Shown: positions 34,617-64,000 of the stretch, piece by piece
Position numbering within the stretch: the stretch's first letter is position 1
Layout: each line of letters begins with the position of its first letter
IMG/VR virus record: IMGVR_UViG_3300010413_000016
Span: 1 to 64,000 of that record
From: a virus
Strand: one strand, 5' to 3'
DNA: 64,000 nt
Notes under the pieces: model-generated
What the model saw: the letters and a program-made list of their open reading frames with translations, nothing else
Database searches by the model: none
What the model was told of the DNA's origin: nothing
Made by a program: the position numbers and the translations under genes

Positions 34617-35531
34617 ATGGAACGAACCGAAAAAAAATATACCTATAGCGAAATCTTTCATTCATTTCAAGGTGAAGGAACATATACTGGCCGCAACACT
34701 GCATGGATTAGATTCTTTCTGTGCAACCTCCAGTGTTCAGGATTCGGACAGAAAGATCCAACAGATCCGTCTACCTATATCTTGCCCTATAAAGATTTGG
34801 ATGTTAGTAAGTACACTAATATTGAAGACCTTCCTGTCTTTGAGTATGGCTGCGATTCGAGCTATACTTGGGCCAAGAAATATAAACACCTAGCAAAAAA
34901 AGCGTCGGCGTTTGAAATATGTGATAGGATTCAGGCCGTTTTAGCCCACGAGACTAATCCGGGCGGATTATTTTTGCATCCTATATCAAGACAGCATACT
35001 AATTTAGCATTTACTGGCGGCGAGCCGATGTTAAATCAAGAAGCGATGGAATCGATTATCATCGAATTTGCTGAACGTCACAACTCTCCTCTCTACGTCA
35101 CGGTAGAAACAAATGGAACTATTGATATTGCAAATCCTGAATTGCAGACAATCATTGAAGAGTGGTATGCTGATGAAGGAGCAGAGTGGTTTTGGTCCGT
35201 AAGTCCTAAGCTATTCTCGACGAGCGGCGAACTGGCTAAAAAAGCTATTCGTCCCGAAGTCGTCAGCATGTATGCCAATATGAGTAATCACGGACACTTG
35301 AAGTATGTTGTAAACGGAACAAATCAAAGTTGGGATGAAGTTGAACAAGCAACTGAAGCATTTCGTAAAGAAGGTGTCGGTTGGGACGTCTACATTATGC
35401 CAGTTGGAGCAACGAAAGAGCAGCAAGAAGATGAACAAATTGCTGAAATTGCAATGGAAGCTATGAAACGTGGATATCATGTATCTGGACGATTGCATTG
35501 CTACATTTTCGGAAATAAAATCGGCACGTAA
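34617..35531 (+). CDS. queE: 7-carboxy-7-deazaguanine synthase (radical SAM)
   Basis: SEIFHSFQGEG, RF..CNLQC...CDS, TGGEP, ETNGT, SVSPKL, RLH. Confidence 0.9.
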   Translation: MERTEKKYTYSEIFHSFQGEGTYTGRNTAWIRFFLCNLQCSGFGQKDPTDPSTYILPYKDLDVSKYTNIEDLPVFEYGCDSSYTWAKKYKHLAKKASAFEICDRIQAVLAHETNPGGLFLHPISRQHTNLAFTGGEPMLNQEAMESIIIEFAERHNSPLYVTVETNGTIDIANPELQTIIEEWYADEGAEWFWSVSPKLFSTSGELAKKAIRPEVVSMYANMSNHGHLKYVVNGTNQSWDEVEQATEAFRKEGVGWDVYIMPVGATKEQQEDEQIAEIAMEAMKRGYHVSGRLHCYIFGNKIGT

Positions 35532-45665: not shown

Positions 45666-46628
45666 GTGATAACTTCTTTAACGAACGCTAAAATTTTTAC
45701 AGGTAACTCTAATCCAGCCCTTGCACGTAAAGTTGCTCGAGCTCTTCATCTTCCACTAGGAAAAATTGAAGTTGAACATTTTAGTGATGGGGAGGTTCGC
45801 GTTGAAATTGGAGAACCTGTCCGTGACGATACTGTTTTTATCGTTCAATCAACTTGTGCTCCAACAAACGACAATTTGATGGAATTGATCATCATGGCTG
45901 ATGCATTTCGTCGGTCAGCTGTAAAGAAAATCGTTGCCGTAATTCCATATTACGGGTATGCGCGACAAGATAGACGACCCGACCACACTCGAACACCAAT
46001 CACATCTCGTTTGGTAGCTGATATGATTCAAGTCGCTGGTGTTGATCAAGTTGTCGTTGTTGATATTCACTCTGGACAGCAGCAAGGCTTCTTTACTATT
46101 CCAGTCATTAATGTGTCAGCTGCACCTGAGATCGTGGGAGATATTTGGAGACATCATGGCAATAACATTGACAATGTATCAATTGTGTCTCCTGACACGG
46201 GTGGCGTTGTCCGTGCTCGTTCAATCGCAAAACAGCTCAATGACGCTGATCTAGCAATTGTTGATAAGAGACGTCCAAAAGCCAATGAATCTCAAGTGAT
46301 GAATGTAATTGGAGATGTCGAGGGTAAAACGTGCATCGTTGTAGATGATATGATCGACACGGCTGGAACTCTATGCAAAGCAGCTGCTGCTTTAGTTGAA
46401 CGTGGAGCAGATAAAGTTATTGCATATGCAACGCACCCAGTATTTTCTGGACCAGCATACGATAATATCGAAAACTCAGTACTATCTGAGGTCGTAGTAA
46501 TGGATACGATCCCAGTATCACACGAATCTCCAAAAATTCGCACAATATCAATCGCAAATCTTATTGCAGAGACTCTCAGTCGATCCCAAAACGGCAAATC
46601 AGTTAGTGAACTGTACGTTGGCCACTAG
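45666..46628 (+). CDS. prs: Ribose-phosphate pyrophosphokinase
   Basis: FSDGE, PYYGYARQDR, DIH, SPDTGG, VDDMIDTAGT. Confidence 0.93.
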   Translation: MITSLTNAKIFTGNSNPALARKVARALHLPLGKIEVEHFSDGEVRVEIGEPVRDDTVFIVQSTCAPTNDNLMELIIMADAFRRSAVKKIVAVIPYYGYARQDRRPDHTRTPITSRLVADMIQVAGVDQVVVVDIHSGQQQGFFTIPVINVSAAPEIVGDIWRHHGNNIDNVSIVSPDTGGVVRARSIAKQLNDADLAIVDKRRPKANESQVMNVIGDVEGKTCIVVDDMIDTAGTLCKAAAALVERGADKVIAYATHPVFSGPAYDNIENSVLSEVVVMDTIPVSHESPKIRTISIANLIAETLSRSQNGKSVSELYVGH

Positions 46629-55289: not shown

Positions 55290-55817
55290 GGTTGGTTCCT
55301 TTTTGTATTATATAGGGAAACAAAAACTCATGGTTATTTTTGTGCCCTCCCATTTTCAGAACGATTTTTTTTTTTTAAAAATTTTTTCGCACCACGATTT
55401 TTCGATGGCGGGATATTTTCCGGGGGGGGGAGCAGAAACTCTAATCTAAGATCCATAATATTAACGGGAGAGATGATTGTAGAAAATGTATGGGAACGTG
55501 TGGCGGAAATTGGCGGGCGATGTTTTCAGGGTGAAAAATTTGGTATACGTTGAACCTAGCAAAGAAGGGTATAATCGCCCATCGGTGTTCTTAGGGACCT
55601 GGCCTCTCGATTTTACCAGATTCTATTTTCAAAGTCAACTGTTGACTTTTAGTTAGTGGGAGGAGCCGAGTCTCCTTCCACTCAGATCATAGCATTCATG
55701 TTGTCTTCTTCATCAAGATGGTGTACGACTTGCTACGTGACTTGTCTCCTCCCTATCAACTGTCGTGATTAGATTGATTGAAAGATATATTATCTCTCAC
55801 CCTAACTATGAAGTCAA

Positions 55818-55916
55818 CTAGTACCCCATACCGACTGCAGCCACAGATGCTGCCATCAAGGTGATGATGGGAGTAACGATAACAACTGCCACAATGATGA
55901 TCACTTTCTGTTTCAT
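55818..55916 (-). CDS. 32-aa single-TM peptide, paralog of 63828-63926
   Basis: MKQKVIIIVAVVIVTPIITLMAASVAAVGMGY; own promoter and RBS. Confidence 0.7.
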   Translation of the reverse strand: MKQKVIIIVAVVIVTPIITLMAASVAAVGMGY

Positions 55917-55980
55917 CTCATCTCTCTTTTCTCTCAACTGTTGAAGCTATTATAGCTCCAACAGTTGAAGAAGTCAACTG

Positions 55981-56316
55981 TTATTTTAATTCATACTTGC
56001 TAAACATATTGACGTCAATATCAGATGACAGAATTTGTTCAACTTCTTGTTTGATCTTGTTCATTCGTTTTGTGACAATGTCAACACTCACAGAACGTGA
56101 TTGATTGATATAGTAATCACTAGATTCAATATAGTTTAAATTGAATTGTTCTGTGAATTTGACGTCTGCATCATGAAAGTCAGACACAGTTGAATCTTCG
56201 TTCATAACAAAGATAATGAAGTCGTCATCAACACTACTGATGATACAGTTGTCTATGTTTGTATCAACTTCATGTTCAATAAACAGATAATTGAACGATA
56301 TGAATACTTTTTTCAT
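55981..56316 (-). CDS. Early hypothetical protein
   Basis: ATG at 56316 after promoter. Confidence 0.6.
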   Translation of the reverse strand: MKKVFISFNYLFIEHEVDTNIDNCIISSVDDDFIIFVMNEDSTVSDFHDADVKFTEQFNLNYIESSDYYINQSRSVSVDIVTKRMNKIKQEVEQILSSDIDVNMFSKYELK

Positions 56317-56377
56317 GTGATCTCTCAGTTCTCTCAACTCAGAGATACTATCTCATGATTCATGATTGAAGACAACA

Positions 56378-56410
56378 GATGGAGAGATTCAGATAATGAA
56401 TCTCTCCATC
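56378..56410 (-). terminator. 14-bp perfect hairpin after gene, terminator-like
   Basis: gatggagagattca-N5-tgaatctctccatc. Confidence 0.55.
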
Positions 56411-56418
56411 AACTGAAC

Positions 56419-56910
56419 TTATTTGCTCAGTTTCTTTTTGATGTTGTAGTGATATGTAGATGCACCTGCTTGAGTCATGTCAAGTTCTGCCATGAAACGA
56501 GTGATAACATCTTTTCTTGCAGGATGTTGACCATCAACTATCATACTGATGTATATTTCTTCTGCAATTTGTGACTTTGATACTTTCTTTTCTTTTTGTA
56601 CTTTGACCGTTTCTACTTTCGGCTTTGTATCTTTGATCTTACGAACTTTCTTCTGTTCAGTTATCTTTTCTTGTTGTGCAATAAATTCAACAATTTCCTT
56701 TTCAGTTTCAGTAACTGCATCTTCAACACTCAACATCTTACTGTCAACATGTGACATCATCCATTCTTGTTTGTATTCTTCTTTCCATTGTTTGAATGGA
56801 ATATAATCTTCAGAAGGAAATGATGCGGCTGCTTTCTCTTCTTTATACAGAGTCAGAAGTGAAATGTTATCCGGAAATTGTGATTCGATTTGATTGATTA
56901 CGTGTTGCAT
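56419..56910 (-). CDS. Early protein with C-terminal HTH-like domain (copy 1)
   Basis: HPARKDVITRFMAELDMTQAGASTY; paralog of 59921 gene. Confidence 0.75.
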   Translation of the reverse strand: MQHVINQIESQFPDNISLLTLYKEEKAAASFPSEDYIPFKQWKEEYKQEWMMSHVDSKMLSVEDAVTETEKEIVEFIAQQEKITEQKKVRKIKDTKPKVETVKVQKEKKVSKSQIAEEIYISMIVDGQHPARKDVITRFMAELDMTQAGASTYHYNIKKKLSK

Positions 56911-57060
56911 GTTGTTTTCCTCTCTCAATTGTTGAATCTATTATCTGTCCAGTTGGTCACTTTGTCAACATGTTTCTGAAATTAATTTCAATCGATTCAT
57001 GTTTGTGTGCCAATGAGGACACCATCTAATAAAGAGAGGCTGAGGGCAACAATTAATTTG

Positions 57061-57239
57061 AGCCGATATTTGATCGGCTGATAAGGAGATGTGATTAGAG
57101 TTCCAACTTGATGGTTGGAGATGATGGGTGGATCAATTTGATCACTTCAGATCCACCCATCATATAATAGGTGGAGGCTACAAGTAGCCTCCTGAGTCGT
57201 CCGCCGGGAGAGATGAGAGAGAGGAGTGGCGGACGACTC
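57061..57239 (-). ncRNA. Candidate structured RNA: five consecutive hairpins, the first with an anti-SD loop
   Basis: Stems at 57194-57239, 57173-57192, 57121-57163, 57102-57119 and 57061-57079. Confidence 0.55.
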
Positions 57240-57241
57240 TG

Positions 57242-57415
57242 TTAACTTGCTAACTTCACTGTTGCCATCCCAAGTCCGTAACCGAACGCGAATATTGCGA
57301 TCGAGAGGCCGAGAACAGCTACCTTGGCGTTGTTACCAAGTGCCCCAAAGAATAGGACGATGAGACCTAGCACGAAGGCGACAACCCAGAGGATAACCGC
57401 CATAACTATCATCAT
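57242..57415 (-). CDS. Small two-TM membrane peptide (57 aa)
   Basis: MMIVMAVILWVVAFVLGLIVLFFGALGNNAKVAVLG...; coupled to upstream stop. Confidence 0.55.
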   Translation of the reverse strand: MMIVMAVILWVVAFVLGLIVLFFGALGNNAKVAVLGLSIAIFAFGYGLGMATVKLAS

Positions 57416-57561
57416 GGTTTAGTCCTGCCGTTCCATACTTGTAGAGCAACTCCCGTGAAGAAGCCAGACAAACAGACTAGAGTAGAGATGACATCGTTGG
57501 TGGCAATGTAGGCGCCCATTCCGATAATCACACCAAGTAATCCAAGTACAATTGCTTTCAT
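57412..57561 (-). CDS. Small two-TM membrane peptide
   Basis: MKAIVLGLLG...; internal promoter TTGACA-17-GATACT near 57596-57624 implies this start. Confidence 0.55.
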   Translation of the reverse strand: MKAIVLGLLGVIIGMGAYIATNDVISTLVCLSGFFTGVALQVWNGRTKP

Positions 57562-57620
57562 CCCATCATTCCACTTTTGTCTCTCAACCGATGACAGTAT
57601 CATCCCACTTTTATGTGGTG

Positions 57621-57896
57621 TCAAGCGGCCCTTTTCAGCTCAGGATGGTTAGTTGCCATCCAACGAACAAGGTCAGGAATGTTGTTGCTGAACTCTTCGA
57701 ACGGAACGGTCGTGTGGCTGAAGATTAGACCACCGCTGAGGAAGTCAATGTCGATCGTATTGTTTGCGTAGTTGATACAAGCTTTGCAGATCGAGTGTGC
57801 CTTGTTACGATCAGCTACATGAATGTACGTGACCTTCGCTGCAGGATAGTTGTTCGCCAAGTAGTCGTACATGTTGCCATTTGCTTCAACTTGCAT
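57621..57896 (-). CDS. Early hypothetical protein
   Basis: Promoter and GAGAGG RBS. Confidence 0.6.
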   Translation of the reverse strand: MQVEANGNMYDYLANNYPAAKVTYIHVADRNKAHSICKACINYANNTIDIDFLSGGLIFSHTTVPFEEFSNNIPDLVRWMATNHPELKRAA

Positions 57897-57955
57897 GTTA
57901 GTGTCCTCTCAATTGTTAGAGGAATTATAGCTCAGCCACTCAAAAGAGTCAACAG

Positions 57956-58171
57956 CTATTTGGATATTGCCCACATCGACGTGAGCGCATACAATGACCA
58001 CCCAAGCCCTTCGAAGAAGACAAACACAATCAGTGCTGATTTCAGTGGAATCAGCCACTTAACGTGATAGTCGCCATACGCTTCGATCTTGTTGTGATCT
58101 TCAAACAAAATGAATCTGGCATATTCTATCAAGATCAATATGATCAAGAACTCAAAATGGATGGCGTTCAT
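57956..58171 (-). CDS. Small membrane protein
   Basis: Two hydrophobic segments; GGAG RBS. Confidence 0.55.
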   Translation of the reverse strand: MNAIHFEFLIILILIEYARFILFEDHNKIEAYGDYHVKWLIPLKSALIVFVFFEGLGWSLYALTSMWAISK

Positions 58172-58203
58172 GTTTTCTTCTCCTTATTGGAGGAGTTATT
58201 CTC

Positions 58204-58611
58204 CTACAACACACTTTCAGCATCAACAGCTGAAAGTGGAAAACTTCCGACATAACGAGCTCGATTTTTACGGAAGACAGCTTGATATTTGCCAATGTTC
58301 ACGTCTTCGTGAGCATCAATTTGGTACACTTTAACAGAAAAGTTACTTTCATCCATTGCTTGACGAACACGTGATGATATTGTCCAGTCTTTAAGTTGTT
58401 GTTTGGAGCCAAATCCAAAGAACCAATTACGCCGATCATCATATTCGATGCTATCCCACATGAGGAAATGGTCATCTTCTGGCACTGGGTGTTTTGGGTC
58501 GGCGATCGAAGATACATATTCAAGGTCACCAAATGATACTGACCGATTGGTGGAATTGCGGTTGTACATTCCTGTACCCTTGGCATGTTCGACGCGTAGA
58601 ACTGTAATCAT
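58204..58611 (-). CDS. Early hypothetical protein
   Basis: Start MITVLRVEH; HPVPEDD...FFGF. Confidence 0.65.
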   Translation of the reverse strand: MITVLRVEHAKGTGMYNRNSTNRSVSFGDLEYVSSIADPKHPVPEDDHFLMWDSIEYDDRRNWFFGFGSKQQLKDWTISSRVRQAMDESNFSVKVYQIDAHEDVNIGKYQAVFRKNRARYVGSFPLSAVDAESVL

Positions 58612-58674
58612 TTGTGATCTCCTCTCAATTGATGGGGCCATTATAGCCCCACCCTGAGTTGAAGTCAACGGGAG

Positions 58675-58989
58675 TCACAGACGTTTCAGTTCAGACTCCA
58701 AACGATTTCGAAAATTCTTATATTGGTCGGTTTCGCTGTACTTCATGTAGAAGTCATGGTATGCCGGGCGAGGAGGTTGGGACAACAACTTCTCCCTGCC
58801 GATTGTGATGTCGAATTTCATCGTTTTCCACGAGCTTTGAAATTCATACGATACGCTACCAAACACCTCGATTCCTTTCAGAATCATAAGGGAGCCAGTG
58901 TTAGCCCAGTTGCGTTCTTGTTCGGACTCAAATCCACACTGGCTAATCAGGTCCATCAAATCTTTCAGGATACGGGTTTGCATTGACAT
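58675..58989 (-). CDS. Early hypothetical protein
   Basis: Promoter and GAGGAG RBS. Confidence 0.65.
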   Translation of the reverse strand: MSMQTRILKDLMDLISQCGFESEQERNWANTGSLMILKGIEVFGSVSYEFQSSWKTMKFDITIGREKLLSQPPRPAYHDFYMKYSETDQYKNFRNRLESELKRL

Positions 58990-59041
58990 GGCGATCTCCT
59001 CTCATTTAATAGAGATATTATAGCTCCATCCTATGATGAAG

Positions 59042-59272
59042 TCAACTGATTTTGTAAATCAGCAGGTCAGATTCTTCCCCAGCCTCACAGGCAAAGATTT
59101 CATCTACTTGTCCGAAGGTTGAGTATTTGAGGTAGGCTTCTTGTTTTTCATGTGAGTCTTCAATCTCATAAAAGATGAAGGCTGCTTGCTGATGGGTATC
59201 AGCCTCAATCACCCGGTGACTAGATTCGCGAGTGTCATAACGATCGAACCAAATTACTAAGAACTGTGCCAT
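59042..59272 (-). CDS. Early hypothetical protein
   Basis: Promoter upstream. Confidence 0.6.
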   Translation of the reverse strand: MAQFLVIWFDRYDTRESSHRVIEADTHQQAAFIFYEIEDSHEKQEAYLKYSTFGQVDEIFACEAGEESDLLIYKIS

Positions 59273-59341
59273 CTCTCTTCAATTCTCTCTTGTGTTAATT
59301 GATGAGACCAGCATAGCACATCCTCGTCTTAGAGTCAACGA

Positions 59342-59860
59342 TTATTTGAATTCAAACGGACCATTAAACTTCTGCTTGTTGATAGTAACAGAAGTGATAG
59401 AAGAGATTTCGAAAGTTCGGATGATGACTTTGTTTTCCAGCCCACCCTGACTCGATTCTGGCTTACTTTCAGGAATACCTTCGATTTGATCTTTGGGAGT
59501 TACGACACCATCTACTTCGTAATGAGTAGTTCCCTTGTTGAGGAAGATGACTTCGAGGTAGTGTTTCTCTTTATATTCTACGAAAGGAATTCCTTCCAGC
59601 CGAGTTCCCCAAGTACGAGGACCAACAGTAAACGACTCAGGATCTTTACCTTCTTTACCGAGACGACGTTTCACCATCTCACCGTAGCCACTTTTCTCTT
59701 TGTTCTGAAAGACCATGACATTAGAGCCAACGGTTACCTTCCGAACGCGACCTTGCAGAAGATTATGACGACCACCACGAAGCTTGACGTTAGTGGAAGT
59801 GTCAATGCTGATGAAAGTTGCGCCATTAACAGCATCCATGATTTTGCGGATATTGTTCAT
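59342..59860 (-). CDS. Early phage protein
   Basis: Start MNNIRKI after GAGGAG; ORF-track N-terminal extension is promoter sequence. Confidence 0.7.
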   Translation of the reverse strand: MNNIRKIMDAVNGATFISIDTSTNVKLRGGRHNLLQGRVRKVTVGSNVMVFQNKEKSGYGEMVKRRLGKEGKDPESFTVGPRTWGTRLEGIPFVEYKEKHYLEVIFLNKGTTHYEVDGVVTPKDQIEGIPESKPESSQGGLENKVIIRTFEISSITSVTINKQKFNGPFEFK

Positions 59861-59920
59861 TCGTGATCTCCTCTCAATTGATGGGGCCATTATAGCCCCA
59901 TCCTGAGTTGAAGTCAACCG

Positions 59921-60400
59921 TTAGCTGAGTTTCTTTTTGATATTGTATTGATAAGTAGAAGCACCAGCTACTGACATGTTCAGTTCATTCATGAAACGTT
60001 GTACTACTTCCTTTCTTGCAGGATGGTTACCATTGACCATCATTTCCTGATAGACCTTCAAAGCACGTTCAGCTTTGGTTGGAACTTTCTCTTTCTTGAC
60101 TTTGACCTTAGGAGTACTTTTGATCTTCCGTACAGTTACCTTTTTCTCAGGTTTTGCCTGTTGTTGCTTTTGATCGTTTTCCATTTCTTCTTCAGACAAC
60201 TTGACAGCAGTCTCAGCATCAACCAATTTTGAAGTTGAGTGAGTCTCCAACCATTCTACTTTGTATGACGCTCTCCAATCCTGAAAGGAAGGAAACGGAT
60301 CTGAAGGAAAATCCATCTGCTCTTTCTCAATCTTGTATAGAGCAAGCAGGTTGATGTTGTTGGGGAATTTAGTTTCGATTGATTTGATTTGCTTCGCCAT
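59921..60400 (-). CDS. Early protein with C-terminal HTH-like domain (copy 2)
   Basis: Paralog of 56419 gene over its full length. Confidence 0.75.
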   Translation of the reverse strand: MAKQIKSIETKFPNNINLLALYKIEKEQMDFPSDPFPSFQDWRASYKVEWLETHSTSKLVDAETAVKLSEEEMENDQKQQQAKPEKKVTVRKIKSTPKVKVKKEKVPTKAERALKVYQEMMVNGNHPARKEVVQRFMNELNMSVAGASTYQYNIKKKLS

Positions 60401-60558
60401 GCGAAATCCTCTCTCTCGTTTGTTAACTGTTGAAGCTATTATCTTCTAAGTTGGGTCTCATGTCGACAAACTTTTCAATTTATTTTTCGTTGAAACACTT
60501 GCTGCATGTGATAGAGAGACTATCCAATAAGATGGGCCTGTTGTCAACAGGAACAGCG

Positions 60559-60692
60559 AAAAAAATGGGTGGCAGCAAAATGAGAGAGGAGCTGCCACCC
60601 ATAAGGGCAAGTTATCCGCCCTCAACATGTATTAATAATGCAACCGACAAAGAGAGTCCACAGGTTATGGGTTGAAATGCTTTGTCGGTTGC
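60559..60692 (-). ncRNA. Candidate 3'UTR-derived RNA ending in a terminator with anti-SD loop
   Basis: Stems 60640-60692, 60604-60622 and 60565-60602 (loop UCCUCUCUCAUUUU) plus U tract. Confidence 0.55.
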
Positions 60693-60693
60693 C

Positions 60694-60954
60694 TTAAACT
60701 GGTTTCTTGGCGACCTGCTCCATTATATAATCGCGCAGATCGTCTTTCATTTCTTCTTCACAATCATTGAAGTCGAACTTTTCAGTTCCATCAATGTTTG
60801 CAGCAAAAACGTTTGCCACACGTTGTGAAGTTTCATCAGAGAACCATTTGACGTTCAGACCAAGCTCATCAGCGAGTTCTTGACGTGTGTACGTTTGTTC
60901 TGCATTGCCGAACTGATCAGCAGGAACATGAAACTGCGCATTTGGATCTGACAT
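60694..60954 (-). CDS. Early hypothetical acidic protein
   Basis: Promoter and RBS. Confidence 0.65.
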   Translation of the reverse strand: MSDPNAQFHVPADQFGNAEQTYTRQELADELGLNVKWFSDETSQRVANVFAANIDGTEKFDFNDCEEEMKDDLRDYIMEQVAKKPV

Positions 60955-61014
60955 CTAACTTCTCCTCTCATTGGATGGAGCCATTATCGCTCCATCCTGA
61001 GTTGGTGTCAACAG

Positions 61015-61449
61015 TTATTCAGAACACTCTTTCTTGCAAGTATTTTGATATGTAGATGCACCTGCTTGAGTCATGTCAAGTTCTGCCATGAAACGAGTGA
61101 TAACATCTTTTCTTGCAGGATGTTGACCATCAACTATCATACTTTGGTAGATGGCAACTGCTTTTTCCTTTTTACTTGTACCATCTGTTGACTTTGTATG
61201 AGGTTTACGTTTGGTAGAGGTAGAAGTTGTCACTTCTTTCTCTTTTTTAGGAAGTGCAATTCTCCATTCTTTTGGCTCAGGAATTTCTTTGAGTGTGCCA
61301 TCATCATGAGGAATCTTTACAGTAGACCCATTAGGAGAAATCTCGATAATGGCATGCACTGCAGAGTAGTCAACTACTTTGCCATTATGAGTGAACTCAC
61401 CATTCTCATCTTCACCCTTCCACTCAACAAACTGACCTTTCGTAAACAT
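61015..61449 (-). CDS. Early protein: beta-rich N-terminus plus HTH-like C-terminus (copy 3)
   Basis: Start MFTKG; C-terminal DNA identical to 56419 gene. Confidence 0.72.
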   Translation of the reverse strand: MFTKGQFVEWKGEDENGEFTHNGKVVDYSAVHAIIEISPNGSTVKIPHDDGTLKEIPEPKEWRIALPKKEKEVTTSTSTKRKPHTKSTDGTSKKEKAVAIYQSMIVDGQHPARKDVITRFMAELDMTQAGASTYQNTCKKECSE

Positions 61450-61665
61450 TTTTGATTCTCCTCTCTCAACTGATGAGTCCATTATAGATCCACCGGTTGA
61501 AGAAGTCAACACAAATCATGAAATTTTTCTGTTGTTCCCAACTTCAACTATGTTGAAGGTGTGTTGATGTGAGTGATCAGATCTCATAACTGAATACTAT
61601 CTTCGTGATCAAATGTAGTGATAGAAGTGGATATATGCCACACTTCTAGCCTCTATTTTCTACCA

Positions 61666-61965
61666 TCAGTGGTGGAAATCATCATCAAAGAACGCGAACA
61701 GATACACCCCTTCTTCCTCGAGATTGTCAGAGTTAAATGCTAATCCCTTTTTGTGGTCACCTTTGTACTCAACGACAAAGTCTCCCAGCTCTGGATAGTC
61801 AACTTTGGGATGCCCAGCTTCTTGCATCAGTTCTACCAATTTGGCTGTGTCTCGTTCACTGATGCATGCATCGCCTGTGGACAAACTGAATGCATCGATA
61901 TCAATTACTTGAGTAACGATATCGAACATCTGTTGTGCCCACTCATTCAGAATCATGCCAGACAT
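61666..61965 (-). CDS. Early hypothetical acidic protein
   Basis: Promoter and RBS. Confidence 0.65.
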   Translation of the reverse strand: MSGMILNEWAQQMFDIVTQVIDIDAFSLSTGDACISERDTAKLVELMQEAGHPKVDYPELGDFVVEYKGDHKKGLAFNSDNLEEEGVYLFAFFDDDFHH

Positions 61966-62055
61966 CTCATATCTCCTTCCTCAACTGATGATGCTACTAT
62001 CCCACATCATCACAAGAAGATCAACAACATCCCACTACCATCCCACTTTCGTGGA

Positions 62056-62203
62056 ACAAAAAAAGAGGCCGACATGTGCCAGCCTCGAAAAGGAGGACGC
62101 TTGTGGTCCTCAGGGGGAAGAAGTGGTCGGCGGCCAAGAGAGAGGAGAGAGGGCGGCCGCCAACCGGGTAAACTTTCAAGCTACATCGTTCTCCTCAACC
62201 GAT
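62056..62203 (-). ncRNA. Candidate sRNA with start-stop ORF and anti-SD hairpin
   Basis: Promoter TTGCAT-17-TATAGT (62210-62238); GAGGAG RBS; ATG-TAG; three hairpins, the last with a U7 tract. Confidence 0.7.
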
Positions 62204-62227
62204 GACTCTACTATACTTTATTCCGTG

Positions 62228-62506
62228 TTAGGATGCAACAGGCTCCACCATGAAAGTTGTCAGCCAGTCGCATACATCTTCGTGGGTGAGCAGCTCAATA
62301 CCTTCCTCACCATCGCGAACGTACCAACTACATTCGTGGGCACATAGAGTGCTTGTTCCAACAATGTCAGTTACACTAAACTCGTTGGCTACCTCGATGA
62401 ACTGAGGAATCGTCAGTGATGAGCCATCTGAGTCGTTGTAGGCAATATCGCCATCAAGAGTATACTTGTGTCCATTGCCGAGTGTCGCTGCTCCATAAAT
62501 GTGCAT
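62228..62506 (-). CDS. Early hypothetical acidic protein
   Basis: Start MHIYG after cassette RBS. Confidence 0.65.
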   Translation of the reverse strand: MHIYGAATLGNGHKYTLDGDIAYNDSDGSSLTIPQFIEVANEFSVTDIVGTSTLCAHECSWYVRDGEEGIELLTHEDVCDWLTTFMVEPVAS

Positions 62507-62565
62507 TTGCTTTCTCCTCTCAATTGATGGGGCCATTATAGCCCCATCCTGAGTTGAAGTCAACG

Positions 62566-62877
62566 TTACATTGACCAATAGGTCTCTGAAGCAGGAGAGC
62601 ATGAGTTAGGAGTGTTGATCGGTTCCTGATACTCTTTGCCGCTCATCAGGTTGGTGCGAGTAACCATCTTCTCGATGTTCTCAGCAAAGTCACGACTGTC
62701 AGCAATCGCGTAGTCGTCCTTCGTAGCACCATCGTGGAGCTTACCTTTGTTGTCAAGACGAGTCAGCGCCGCTTTGGCTGCACGCTCAGTCTTGTAGCTC
62801 TCAACCCAACATCCCCACGACTTGCTCGGCGCTTTGAGGATCAGGGTGGTTTCTTTGTGATAGATTACGTAGCTCAT
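62566..62877 (-). CDS. Early phage protein
   Basis: YKTERAAKAALTR...NLMSGKE...PASETYWSM. Confidence 0.7.
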   Translation of the reverse strand: MSYVIYHKETTLILKAPSKSWGCWVESYKTERAAKAALTRLDNKGKLHDGATKDDYAIADSRDFAENIEKMVTRTNLMSGKEYQEPINTPNSCSPASETYWSM

Positions 62878-62939
62878 TTTGTTTCTCCTCTCTCAAGTGT
62901 TGAAGTAATTATAGCCCAACACCTGAGAGAAGTCAACGG

Positions 62940-63167
62940 TTAGAGTTTCAACTCTTCTTTCAGCGCATCATAGATTGCCTGGCGAAATTCTCGAGTCTCT
63001 TCGGAGTACATGTCCTTGATATTCTCGTCGATCCAGTCGGCGATCTCTTCACCATCTTTGATGCCTCCATCACTGGCAAGCCACTCGTACGGACTTTCGA
63101 TTGGGTTCTCGTAGTGGGCCATCATCAGACAGGCAATGTGTTTGGCTGCCTTTGTCATTGTGTTCAT
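62940..63167 (-). CDS. Early hypothetical protein
   Basis: GAGGAG RBS. Confidence 0.6.
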   Translation of the reverse strand: MNTMTKAAKHIACLMMAHYENPIESPYEWLASDGGIKDGEEIADWIDENIKDMYSEETREFRQAIYDALKEELKL

Positions 63168-63222
63168 TTATATCTCCTCATTTGATGAGGAGCGTCGCTC
63201 CTCATCAAACTGTTGACAACGT

Positions 63223-63537
63223 TTACTTTTCGCTGTTTTCGAGATGCTCTTTGTAGTACTCGATGGCAGCTTCAACGCGATCGTCACCATCGATGCCGTA
63301 GATCTTGTAGTCGCCCATCGTGGTGGTGTTCTCATCATTGATATACTCGAACCCACCATAGTACTCGAGTGAGCGGATATTGTGTGCCTTGGTGATGATC
63401 AGCTCGTCATTAAGGTCAACGAACACGTGACCAGCACGTGAGTCAAGGCCGATCTTGTCAGCACGAACGTATGGAAGATCCTCAATGACGTTGCCAAGCA
63501 TCTCGTTTGCTTCGTCGATTACGTTCAGTAGTTCCAT
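63223..63537 (-). CDS. Early hypothetical protein
   Basis: Start MELLNV; LEYYGGFEY. Confidence 0.65.
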   Translation of the reverse strand: MELLNVIDEANEMLGNVIEDLPYVRADKIGLDSRAGHVFVDLNDELIITKAHNIRSLEYYGGFEYINDENTTTMGDYKIYGIDGDDRVEAAIEYYKEHLENSEK

Positions 63538-63592
63538 TGCTTCTCTCCTTTCGTGATTGATGGGGCCATTATAGCCCCATCCTGAATTGAAG

Positions 63593-63814
63593 TCAACGTT
63601 CGATGTACTCACCGTTGAGCCAAGCCTGCATTACCTCTACAGTTTGACGTACTTGATCTTCGGTCATTTGGATGGAAGCAGGAGAACGGTCTCCTGGTAC
63701 GATACCTTGGTTCAGTTGAAGACAACGACCTGGTGTGATACCACGGAATGAAGTCAACATTACTTCTTGAACGTTTCCAGTTTCATCGATTGCTGATTTC
63801 AGATTGATGCTCAT
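63593..63814 (-). CDS. Early hypothetical protein
   Basis: GGAGG RBS. Confidence 0.6.
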   Translation of the reverse strand: MSINLKSAIDETGNVQEVMLTSFRGITPGRCLQLNQGIVPGDRSPASIQMTEDQVRQTVEVMQAWLNGEYIER

Positions 63815-63827
63815 GATGCATCCTCCC

Positions 63828-63926
63828 TTAGTACCCCATTCCAGTGGCAGTGAACAGGGCGAGTCCAGCCAGGATGGTCGGAGTGGTGACTACAACTGCT
63901 GCGATGATGATTACTTCCTCTTTCAT
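63828..63926 (-). CDS. 32-aa single-TM peptide, paralog of 55818-55916
   Basis: MKEEVIIIAAVVVTTPTILAGLALFTATGMGY; own promoter and RBS. Confidence 0.7.
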   Translation of the reverse strand: MKEEVIIIAAVVVTTPTILAGLALFTATGMGY

Positions 63927-64000
63927 GATGATCTCCTCTCACTATGAGTACATTATTGCTCAACCACACCAAGAAGTCAACAGTGGTTGGGATCTTGGCC

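Follow-up and report, generated by a model that had tools for sequence, protein, structure and literature searches.

Three GC-rich hairpins in the minus-strand early region of an uncultured phage were found to carry loops complementary to the ribosome-binding sites (RBSs) of the phage's own early genes, and we consider the chances evenly balanced that these loops, as their sequences suggest, act by base pairing with early leaders and damp early-gene translation. The window analysed here is the first 64 kb (64,000 nt) of one 74,769-bp contig, IMG/VR record IMGVR_UViG_3300010413_000016, which derives from marine-sediment metagenomes. The three hairpins (HP1-HP3) were re-found at the positions, and on the strand, given by an earlier inspection of the letters alone (hereafter the sequence-only reading), and are as follows:

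57239-57194, minus strand: HP1, a 12-bp GC-rich stem with no G-U pairs and a 22-nt loop, ACUCCUCUCUCUCAUCUCUCCC, at 57206-57227.
60602-60565, minus strand: HP2, an 11-12-bp stem with a 14-nt loop, UCCUCUCUCAUUUU (60577-60590), followed by U7 (60565-60559).
62165-62125, minus strand: HP3, a 12-bp stem including two G-U pairs, with a 17-nt loop, CCCUCUCUCCUCUCUCU, at 62137-62153.

The loops are 91-100% pyrimidine; that of HP1 includes CUCCUCUCUC and CUCAUCUCUC, and that of HP3 includes UCUCCUCUCUC, the complement of GAGAGAGGAGA. Fold stability against shuffled sequences gave z values of -7.7, -3.7 and -4.9 for the regions of HP1, HP2 and HP3, respectively. The loop exposure proposed in the sequence-only reading was borne out in silico, with a predicted unpaired probability of 1.00 at each loop base in transcript contexts of 460-590 nt. 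Its view that the minus-strand RNA is the structured strand likewise agrees with the G-U pairs in HP3 and with the U tracts that follow HP2 and a terminator downstream of HP3. A search of the whole 74.8 kb on both strands returned HP1-HP3 as the sole GC-rich stems of at least 10 bp with loops longer than 10 nt and at least 91% pyrimidine, and other terminators of the early region (e.g. at ~71.2 kb and ~66.2 kb) have loops of 3-5 nt.

The early RBS consensus is UUGAGAGGAGA, and each loop carries CUCCUCUC (UCUCCUCUC in HP3), the exact complement of the early RBS core GAGAGGAG. Counting this core together with its complement, the genome holds 19 copies, made up of 13 minus-strand RBSs, two plus-strand RBSs, the three loops and one copy at 35093, which is apparently a chance occurrence; a first-order Markov model predicts 0.9 sense-strand copies of GAGAGGAG. 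The antisense copies number exactly three, one in every hairpin loop. Duplex energies were calculated with RNAduplex for the loops against 38 early and 45 late initiation regions. Over the 38 early sites, the mean energies were -13.9 (HP1), -10.7 (HP2) and -14.6 kcal/mol (HP3), with 26/38, 17/38 and 31/38 sites at or below -12 kcal/mol, whereas only 2/45, 0/45 and 1/45 late sites reached this threshold. Pairing was weakened when the order of the loop bases was shuffled (fractions 0.007, 0.037 and 0.000 for HP1, HP2 and HP3). The complementarity is thus specific to the RBS motif of the early cassettes and does not extend to any purine-rich Shine-Dalgarno (SD) sequence; the late plus-strand genes have ordinary AGGAG-type sites without the GAGAG extension. 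The canonical 16S tail gave a mean of -8.8 kcal/mol on the same early sites, weaker than the loops. Mimicry of the 16S 3' end, as suggested in the sequence-only reading, does not describe the loops well: they are not simple tail mimics, given that 8-12 nt of pairing with GAGAG-extended leaders exceeds the reach of the canonical anti-SD. The repression of host mRNAs likewise suggested there gained no support from this analysis. The RBS strings quoted in that reading are all present, and the longest perfect Watson-Crick matches between loop and RBS span 9-12 nt. The best-matching RBSs, those with an additional GA repeat, include the following (the paralogues are described below):

61457-61467, minus strand: target RBS GAGAGAGGAGA of the paralogue gene 61015-61449, with 10-11-nt perfect complementarity to all three loops.
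60407-60417, minus strand: target RBS GAGAGAGAGGA of the paralogue gene 59921-60400, ~170 nt downstream of HP2.
56915-56926, minus strand: target RBS GAGAGAGGAAAA of the paralogue gene 56419-56910, ~290 nt downstream of HP1; its best-matching string is UGAGAGAGGA.
62884-62894, minus strand: target RBS GAGAGAGGAGA of gene 62566-62877.
Gene 69765: target RBS GAGAGGAGAGAG, among the best loop matches.

In the preferred reading, the hairpins ride at the 3' ends of early transcripts, HP1 in a 3' untranslated region (UTR), HP2 as a terminator and HP3 in a separate RNA of ~146 nt; each GC-rich stem would hold open a loop antisense to the cassette motif (UU)GAGAGGAG(A). Over 8-12 nt, the loops would anneal to leaders, either in trans or within one long transcript, to give a duplex stronger than the 5-6-bp duplex open to the 16S tail, and this pairing would occlude the SD and lower early-gene translation. 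The strongest effect would be expected on extended GAGAGAGG leaders, including those of the three helix-turn-helix (HTH)-like paralogues just downstream of the hairpins, and stable 3' hairpins may outlive the mRNA bodies, such that the effect would accumulate over time as an RNA-only brake on early expression. The structures, their uniqueness and strand, the accessibility of the loops in silico and the specificity of their complementarity for early leaders were computed here; from these we infer expression and stability of the RNAs, pairing in vivo, including a 10-nt helix within closed loops, and repression. Three features suggest that the loop sequence is functional: it is unique in the genome, it is specific for early leaders, and the loop size is unusual compared to the normal terminators of the phage. 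The loops could act in trans, for which the HP3-containing RNA is the best candidate, or in cis, on read-through transcripts or by contacts between 3'UTR and 5'UTR.

The leaders in question belong to ~25 promoter-RBS cassettes, distributed over 55789-64000 and on to 74.7 kb, in which GTTGACT-17-TATAAT is followed by CAAUUGAGAGGAGA and ATG. Each cassette adjoins the stop codon before it, and a 10-bp inverted repeat, GATGGGGC...GCCCCATC, encloses its -10 box. The T4-type promoter early stem-loop (PeSL) regions consist of a strong sigma70-like promoter whose -10 box is overlapped by a stem-loop, followed by an SD and a start codon (PMC2839356), and the cassettes share this layout exactly, including the abutment on the previous stop codon. 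In PeSL regions the stem-loops belong to the promoter cassette and act as attenuators (PMC2839356), whereas HP1-HP3 form a separate class outside the cassettes and overlap no promoter hexamers; integration of a stem-loop with a sigma70-like early promoter was seen in the regular cassettes and not in the three hairpins. Contigs of mangrove and sediment relatives skip whole genes, with joints at 60966->61464, 61449->61980, 59918->61463 and 61012->62567, and the junctions of these skips fall within the conserved RBS/promoter cassette, which indicates, at the level of sequence, cassette-mediated gene shuffling as expected for the PeSL type. A plus-strand gene pair at 72.1-72.8 kb, beyond the window, lies inside the minus-strand early region as a small divergent unit with UUGAGAGGAGA-type RBSs at 72.1 and 72.36 kb.

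Because most cassettes abut the previous stop codon, transcripts from many promoters are likely to run on to a terminator. Between 55 and 64 kb there are three long gaps, of 331, 293 and 262 nt, and each contains one of HP1-HP3 at the end of a multi-promoter operon. HP1, which begins 2 nt past the stop codon of gene 57242-57415, has no U tract and is followed by two further hairpins (57173-57192 and ~57118-57160), is a predicted 3'-UTR element. HP2 is the predicted intrinsic terminator of the operon starting at ~62010, and a promoter, TTGACA-17-GATAGT (60547-60519, minus strand), lies immediately 3' of it. The promoter scan gave no promoter directly upstream of HP1 or HP2. Intrinsic terminators consist of a GC-rich stem and then a U tract, with a loop of typically 3-8 nt. 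Among the three hairpins the U tract is found in HP2 alone, and their 22-, 14- and 17-nt loops are missed by a scan that allows 3-8 nt. HP3 alone lies in a predicted transcription unit with its own promoter and terminator and no open reading frame (ORF), as expected for an anti-SD small RNA (sRNA). This unit, in the intergenic gap designated IGR3, is composed of the following:

62058-62238, minus strand: IGR3 transcription unit, a predicted ~146-nt RNA with its own promoter and terminator, containing HP3.
62238-62233 (-35, TTGCAT) and 62215-62210 (-10, TATAGT), minus strand: cassette-type promoter with 17-nt spacing.
62196-62191 (SD, GAGGAG) and 62186-62181 (ATG-TAG), minus strand: SD and mini-ORF, a start-stop only and no real ORF.
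After the mini-ORF, minus strand, in order: HP3, a CU-rich linker ACUUCUUCCCCCU, a small hairpin, a CCUCCUU linker and the terminator.
62086-62065 plus U7, to 62058, minus strand: sequence-predicted terminator.

The predicted IGR3 RNA displays three exposed or semi-exposed CU-rich stretches, and in its predicted fold the 5' SD pairs with the 3' CCUCCUU while the HP3 loop stays free. An AGGAGG...UUG-UAG arrangement similar to the start-stop mini-ORF of IGR3 was also noticed just past HP1 (~57176-57191). Other roles considered for the hairpins were discarded. No plausible spacing or frame was found for the loops as RBSs of plus-strand ORFs, pairing of the HP1 loop with the adjacent AGGAGG in an H-type pseudoknot was reasoned to be sterically implausible with a 12-bp stem, and the stems were reasoned to be too short for RNase III sites.

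Comparison of the three stems, in register from the loop outward, showed that 7/11 pairs are common to HP3 and HP1, and 7/10 to HP3 and HP2 (p ~0.04 each and 0.015 jointly, against shuffled pair order), and the remaining positions are mostly double compensatory changes or G-U wobbles. HP1-HP3 may therefore be diverged paralogues, contrary to the sequence-only reading, which had called the stems unrelated. The rest of the three gaps, promoters excepted, is no longer alignable. Rather than three convergent origins, these sequences suggest duplication of one hairpin, with compensatory changes preserving the stem and the RBS complement persisting in the loop as the surroundings decayed. The argument that different stems with a common loop indicate selection on the loop consequently survives in part: the independence of the three cases is weakened, since the stems look paralogous, and the retention of the RBS complement in the loops still stands.

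The genes next to the hairpins are also related. One paralogue comes directly after HP1 (56419-56910) and another directly after HP2 (59921-60400), and a third is the second gene past HP3 (61015-61449); a further paralogue, without an upstream hairpin, brings the family to four and lies at 68243-68785 on the contig beyond the window. The family has a common C-terminal domain of ~50 amino acids with the cores HPxRK..V..RF and AGASTY. Structural modelling gave a predicted local distance difference test (pLDDT) score of 71 overall and ~90 in the C-terminal three-helix domain, for which there was no Pfam match and for which the fold search returned no significant match, only weak HTH/homeodomain-like rows. 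In one mangrove-relative contig, 61449 is joined to 61980, setting the paralogue directly after IGR3, and from this order the ancestral module was probably hairpin gap, promoter and paralogue gene. The hairpins may have a special link to these paralogues.

Judged from its clamp loader, which has 45-50% identity to the counterparts in the jumbo phages RsoM2USA, XacN1 and PA5oct, the contig probably comes from a large phage in this group and represents a fragment of it. Mangrove metagenomes contain related contigs, and the runs listed for this stretch include no RNA run. Divergence of the relatives was 0.6-1.1% over a piece comprising HP3, IGR3 and the upstream gene (three runs, whole-piece figure), 2% over the piece with HP2 and its upstream gene and 2-12% over other pieces; the low IGR3 divergence is weak support at best for the preferred reading. 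No DNA match, near or distant, was found in 50,697 phage records, in which tblastn also gave no match to the paralogue protein. No related loci were found in viral contigs and in metagenome scans, two cassette patterns had no exact match in viral contigs, and the single protein homologue recovered was P0002, with 63% identity, on a 6.7-kb Joint Genome Institute (JGI) contig. A search of Rfam gave no match to the hairpins at the gathering threshold or at E<=5. The published noncoding RNAs of PA5oct, ncRNA001 and ncRNA002 (PMC7318152), look different from HP1-HP3. Polypyrimidine tracts in RsoM2USA and XacN1 were considered as equivalents and rejected, as they correspond to a tRNA end, an ordinary terminator and a probable antisense coding sequence.

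Several observations weigh against a role of the loops in pairing with early leaders. CU-rich loops score on GA-rich leaders anyway, with shuffled loops still reaching about -9 to -10 kcal/mol, and the duplex energies leave out the topological strain of 10-12-nt pairing inside a closed loop. If the hairpins are paralogous, their common loop may be due in part to descent instead of selection on three separate occasions. The low divergence extends from IGR3 into the neighbouring gene and might stem from a recent exchange. In the relative with the 61449->61980 joint, the paralogue after IGR3 has a standard leader, not an extended one, which weakens a special link between hairpin and paralogue. 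CU-loop hairpins are not present in the first 45 kb of the PA5oct record, which covers its 39-kb long terminal repeat (LTR) early region, and a crude polypyrimidine scan gave no equivalent in RsoM2USA and XacN1. A rival explanation is that the hairpins are plain 3'-end elements, terminators or exonuclease barriers whose CU loops stay unpaired with leaders and were kept by descent from one duplicated hairpin. The long intergenic gaps that contain the hairpins do all lie at operon ends, HP2 has its U tract, and triple selection on the loop would be unnecessary with stems that look paralogous. However, neither HP1 nor HP3 has a U tract, and further hairpins come after both; in the ordinary terminators of this phage the loops measure 3-5 nt, and a large loop makes a terminator weaker. 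Moreover, the flanks have diverged beyond alignment, yet an exact RBS complement stands in every loop, and the order of the loop bases matters, not their composition alone. We consider plain 3'-end elements an unlikely explanation on this balance.

The C/U-rich, G-poor loops, predicted to be held single-stranded and accompanied in IGR3 by more C-rich linkers, might instead be sites for a protein preferring single-stranded pyrimidines, such as ribosomal protein S1, Rho (rut-like sites), cold-shock proteins, Hfq or a phage RNA-binding protein. No such protein was identified by this analysis, at 14-22 nt the loops, closed by stable stems, are small for a rut site, and the exact match to the phage RBS 8-mer together with the specificity for early leaders would have to be a coincidence; binding of this kind is, in our judgement, quite improbable. 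Nor do we favour a role at the level of DNA, in which the GAGAGGAG box would be a double-stranded site, either for an early-promoter regulator (e.g. the HTH-like paralogues) or as a recombination hotspot of the cassette system, with the loops as inverted copies. The same box lies just downstream of each cassette promoter, the deletion junctions of the relatives (60966->61464 and 61449->61980) fall within the RBS/promoter cassette, and the downstream paralogues end in a confidently modelled three-helix domain, but the flanking 12-bp GC-rich inverted repeats with G-U pairs, which would be A-C mismatches on the opposite strand, and the U-tract terminator point to RNA, and the fold search with the paralogue gave no significant DNA-binding match. 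A DNA-level site is thus a very remote prospect.

For the preferred reading, base pairing of the loops with early leaders, the closest mechanistic match by analogy is the cuckoo/CcsR family, and RNAIII-type loops, the icaR contact between 3'UTR and SD and, among phages, the P1/P7 c4 RNA are close as well; judged by sequence, the hairpins belong to none of these systems. Cuckoo RNAs of Alphaproteobacteria (CcsR/RSs0680 and alpha-r14/NfeR1) have 24-50-nt hairpins in which the stems are highly variable but compensating, and the 9-27-nt loops all display one CU-rich anti-SD-like motif thought to occlude RBSs (PMC4615179). HP1-HP3 resemble them in variable compensating stems, loop sizes and a single common CU-rich motif. 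However, in the cuckoo family a single chromosomal sRNA presents the motif CCUCCUCCC in 2-4 adjacent hairpins. This motif occurs in none of the three loops, which carry instead a CUCCUCUC-type motif matched to the phage leaders and are dispersed at operon ends, 1.5-3.4 kb apart, with neighbouring hairpins that are not CU-rich. Hairpin H14 of Staphylococcus aureus RNAIII is also a terminator, and RsaE/RoxS-type sRNAs have C-rich regions. In this respect HP2 resembles H14, an anti-SD hairpin that doubles as a terminator, and the IGR3 RNA, with several C-rich stretches, resembles RoxS. The loops of RNAIII H7, H13 and H14 expose C/U-rich seeds that pair with SD regions (summarised in PMC4615179). 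Unlike the present hairpins, with longer CU repeats directed to the own early leaders of a virulent-type phage, these host sRNAs use short UCCC seeds on host mRNA targets, and no sequence or Rfam relation to HP1-HP3 was found.

In S. aureus icaR, a 3'UTR pyrimidine motif, UCCCCUG, pairs with the SD region and blocks initiation, with RNase III cleavage shown (PMC3868564). HP1 and HP2 are similar in that they lie in 3' UTRs of transcripts bearing target leaders, and both have a pyrimidine motif complementary to an SD of the same transcript, the pairing being predicted only. The icaR case concerns a single gene and comes with experiments, whereas many candidate targets, all predicted from sequence, are found here. 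The c4 RNA is encoded upstream of its only target, the icd/ant operon, and shares a strand with it; it is processed from a transcript and serves temperate-phage immunity. Complementarity between its loop sequences and a phage mRNA, at the ribosome-binding region (review, PMC12197685), is a likeness to the loops described here. The difference lies in temperate immunity, one target and processing on the one side and, on the other, a lytic-type early region in which candidate targets are many and no processing is known.

Large virulent phages must silence dozens of strongly expressed early genes, for which T4 uses the RegB nuclease and the RegA repressor, and to our knowledge the known early shut-off solutions of such phages are proteins. 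It is possible, if rather doubtful, that HP1-HP3 are the visible part of an RNA-only early shut-off, a protein-free functional analogue of RegB/RegA. The 3' hairpins and one dedicated small RNA would then accumulate through the combined activity of many strong early promoters, titrate the cassette leader GAGAGGAG and out-compete the 16S tail, and loop and leader would co-evolve while the cassettes shuffle. If true, a few hairpins would read a common 'address label' of the phage's own cassettes to silence early genes, and cassette shuffling, termination and translational timing would be joined in one RNA device. Small in size, driven by sigma70-type promoters and defined entirely by its sequence, the system is directly testable in E. 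coli reporters without the host.

The remainder of the contig is in keeping with a division into two blocks. Positions 1-54.4 kb are filled with plus-strand genes, including those for a helicase, the clamp loader, tail fibres, rIIA/rIIB, QueE and phosphoribosyl pyrophosphate (PRPP)/NAMPT-type enzymes, and small genes of the early block occupy the minus strand from ~54.8 kb to the contig end. No tRNA genes were found for this DNA. The plus-strand block includes QueE-like radical S-adenosylmethionine (SAM) and ribose-phosphate pyrophosphokinase/NAMPT-type genes (34617-35531 and 45666-46628); auxiliary metabolism genes of the QueE-like and NAMPT types are typical of large marine phages. Where the late (plus) block meets the early (minus) block lies a 528-nt gene-free stretch (55290-55817) with homopolymers, namely C9, as read on the minus strand, and 12-nt A/T runs. 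Two more early-region hairpins beyond the window, at 65613-65643 and ~67960-67995 of the contig, pair a GA-rich arm (AGAGAGGG and GGGGAGGGAG, respectively) with a CU-rich arm and form self-contained SD-like/anti-SD-like helices.

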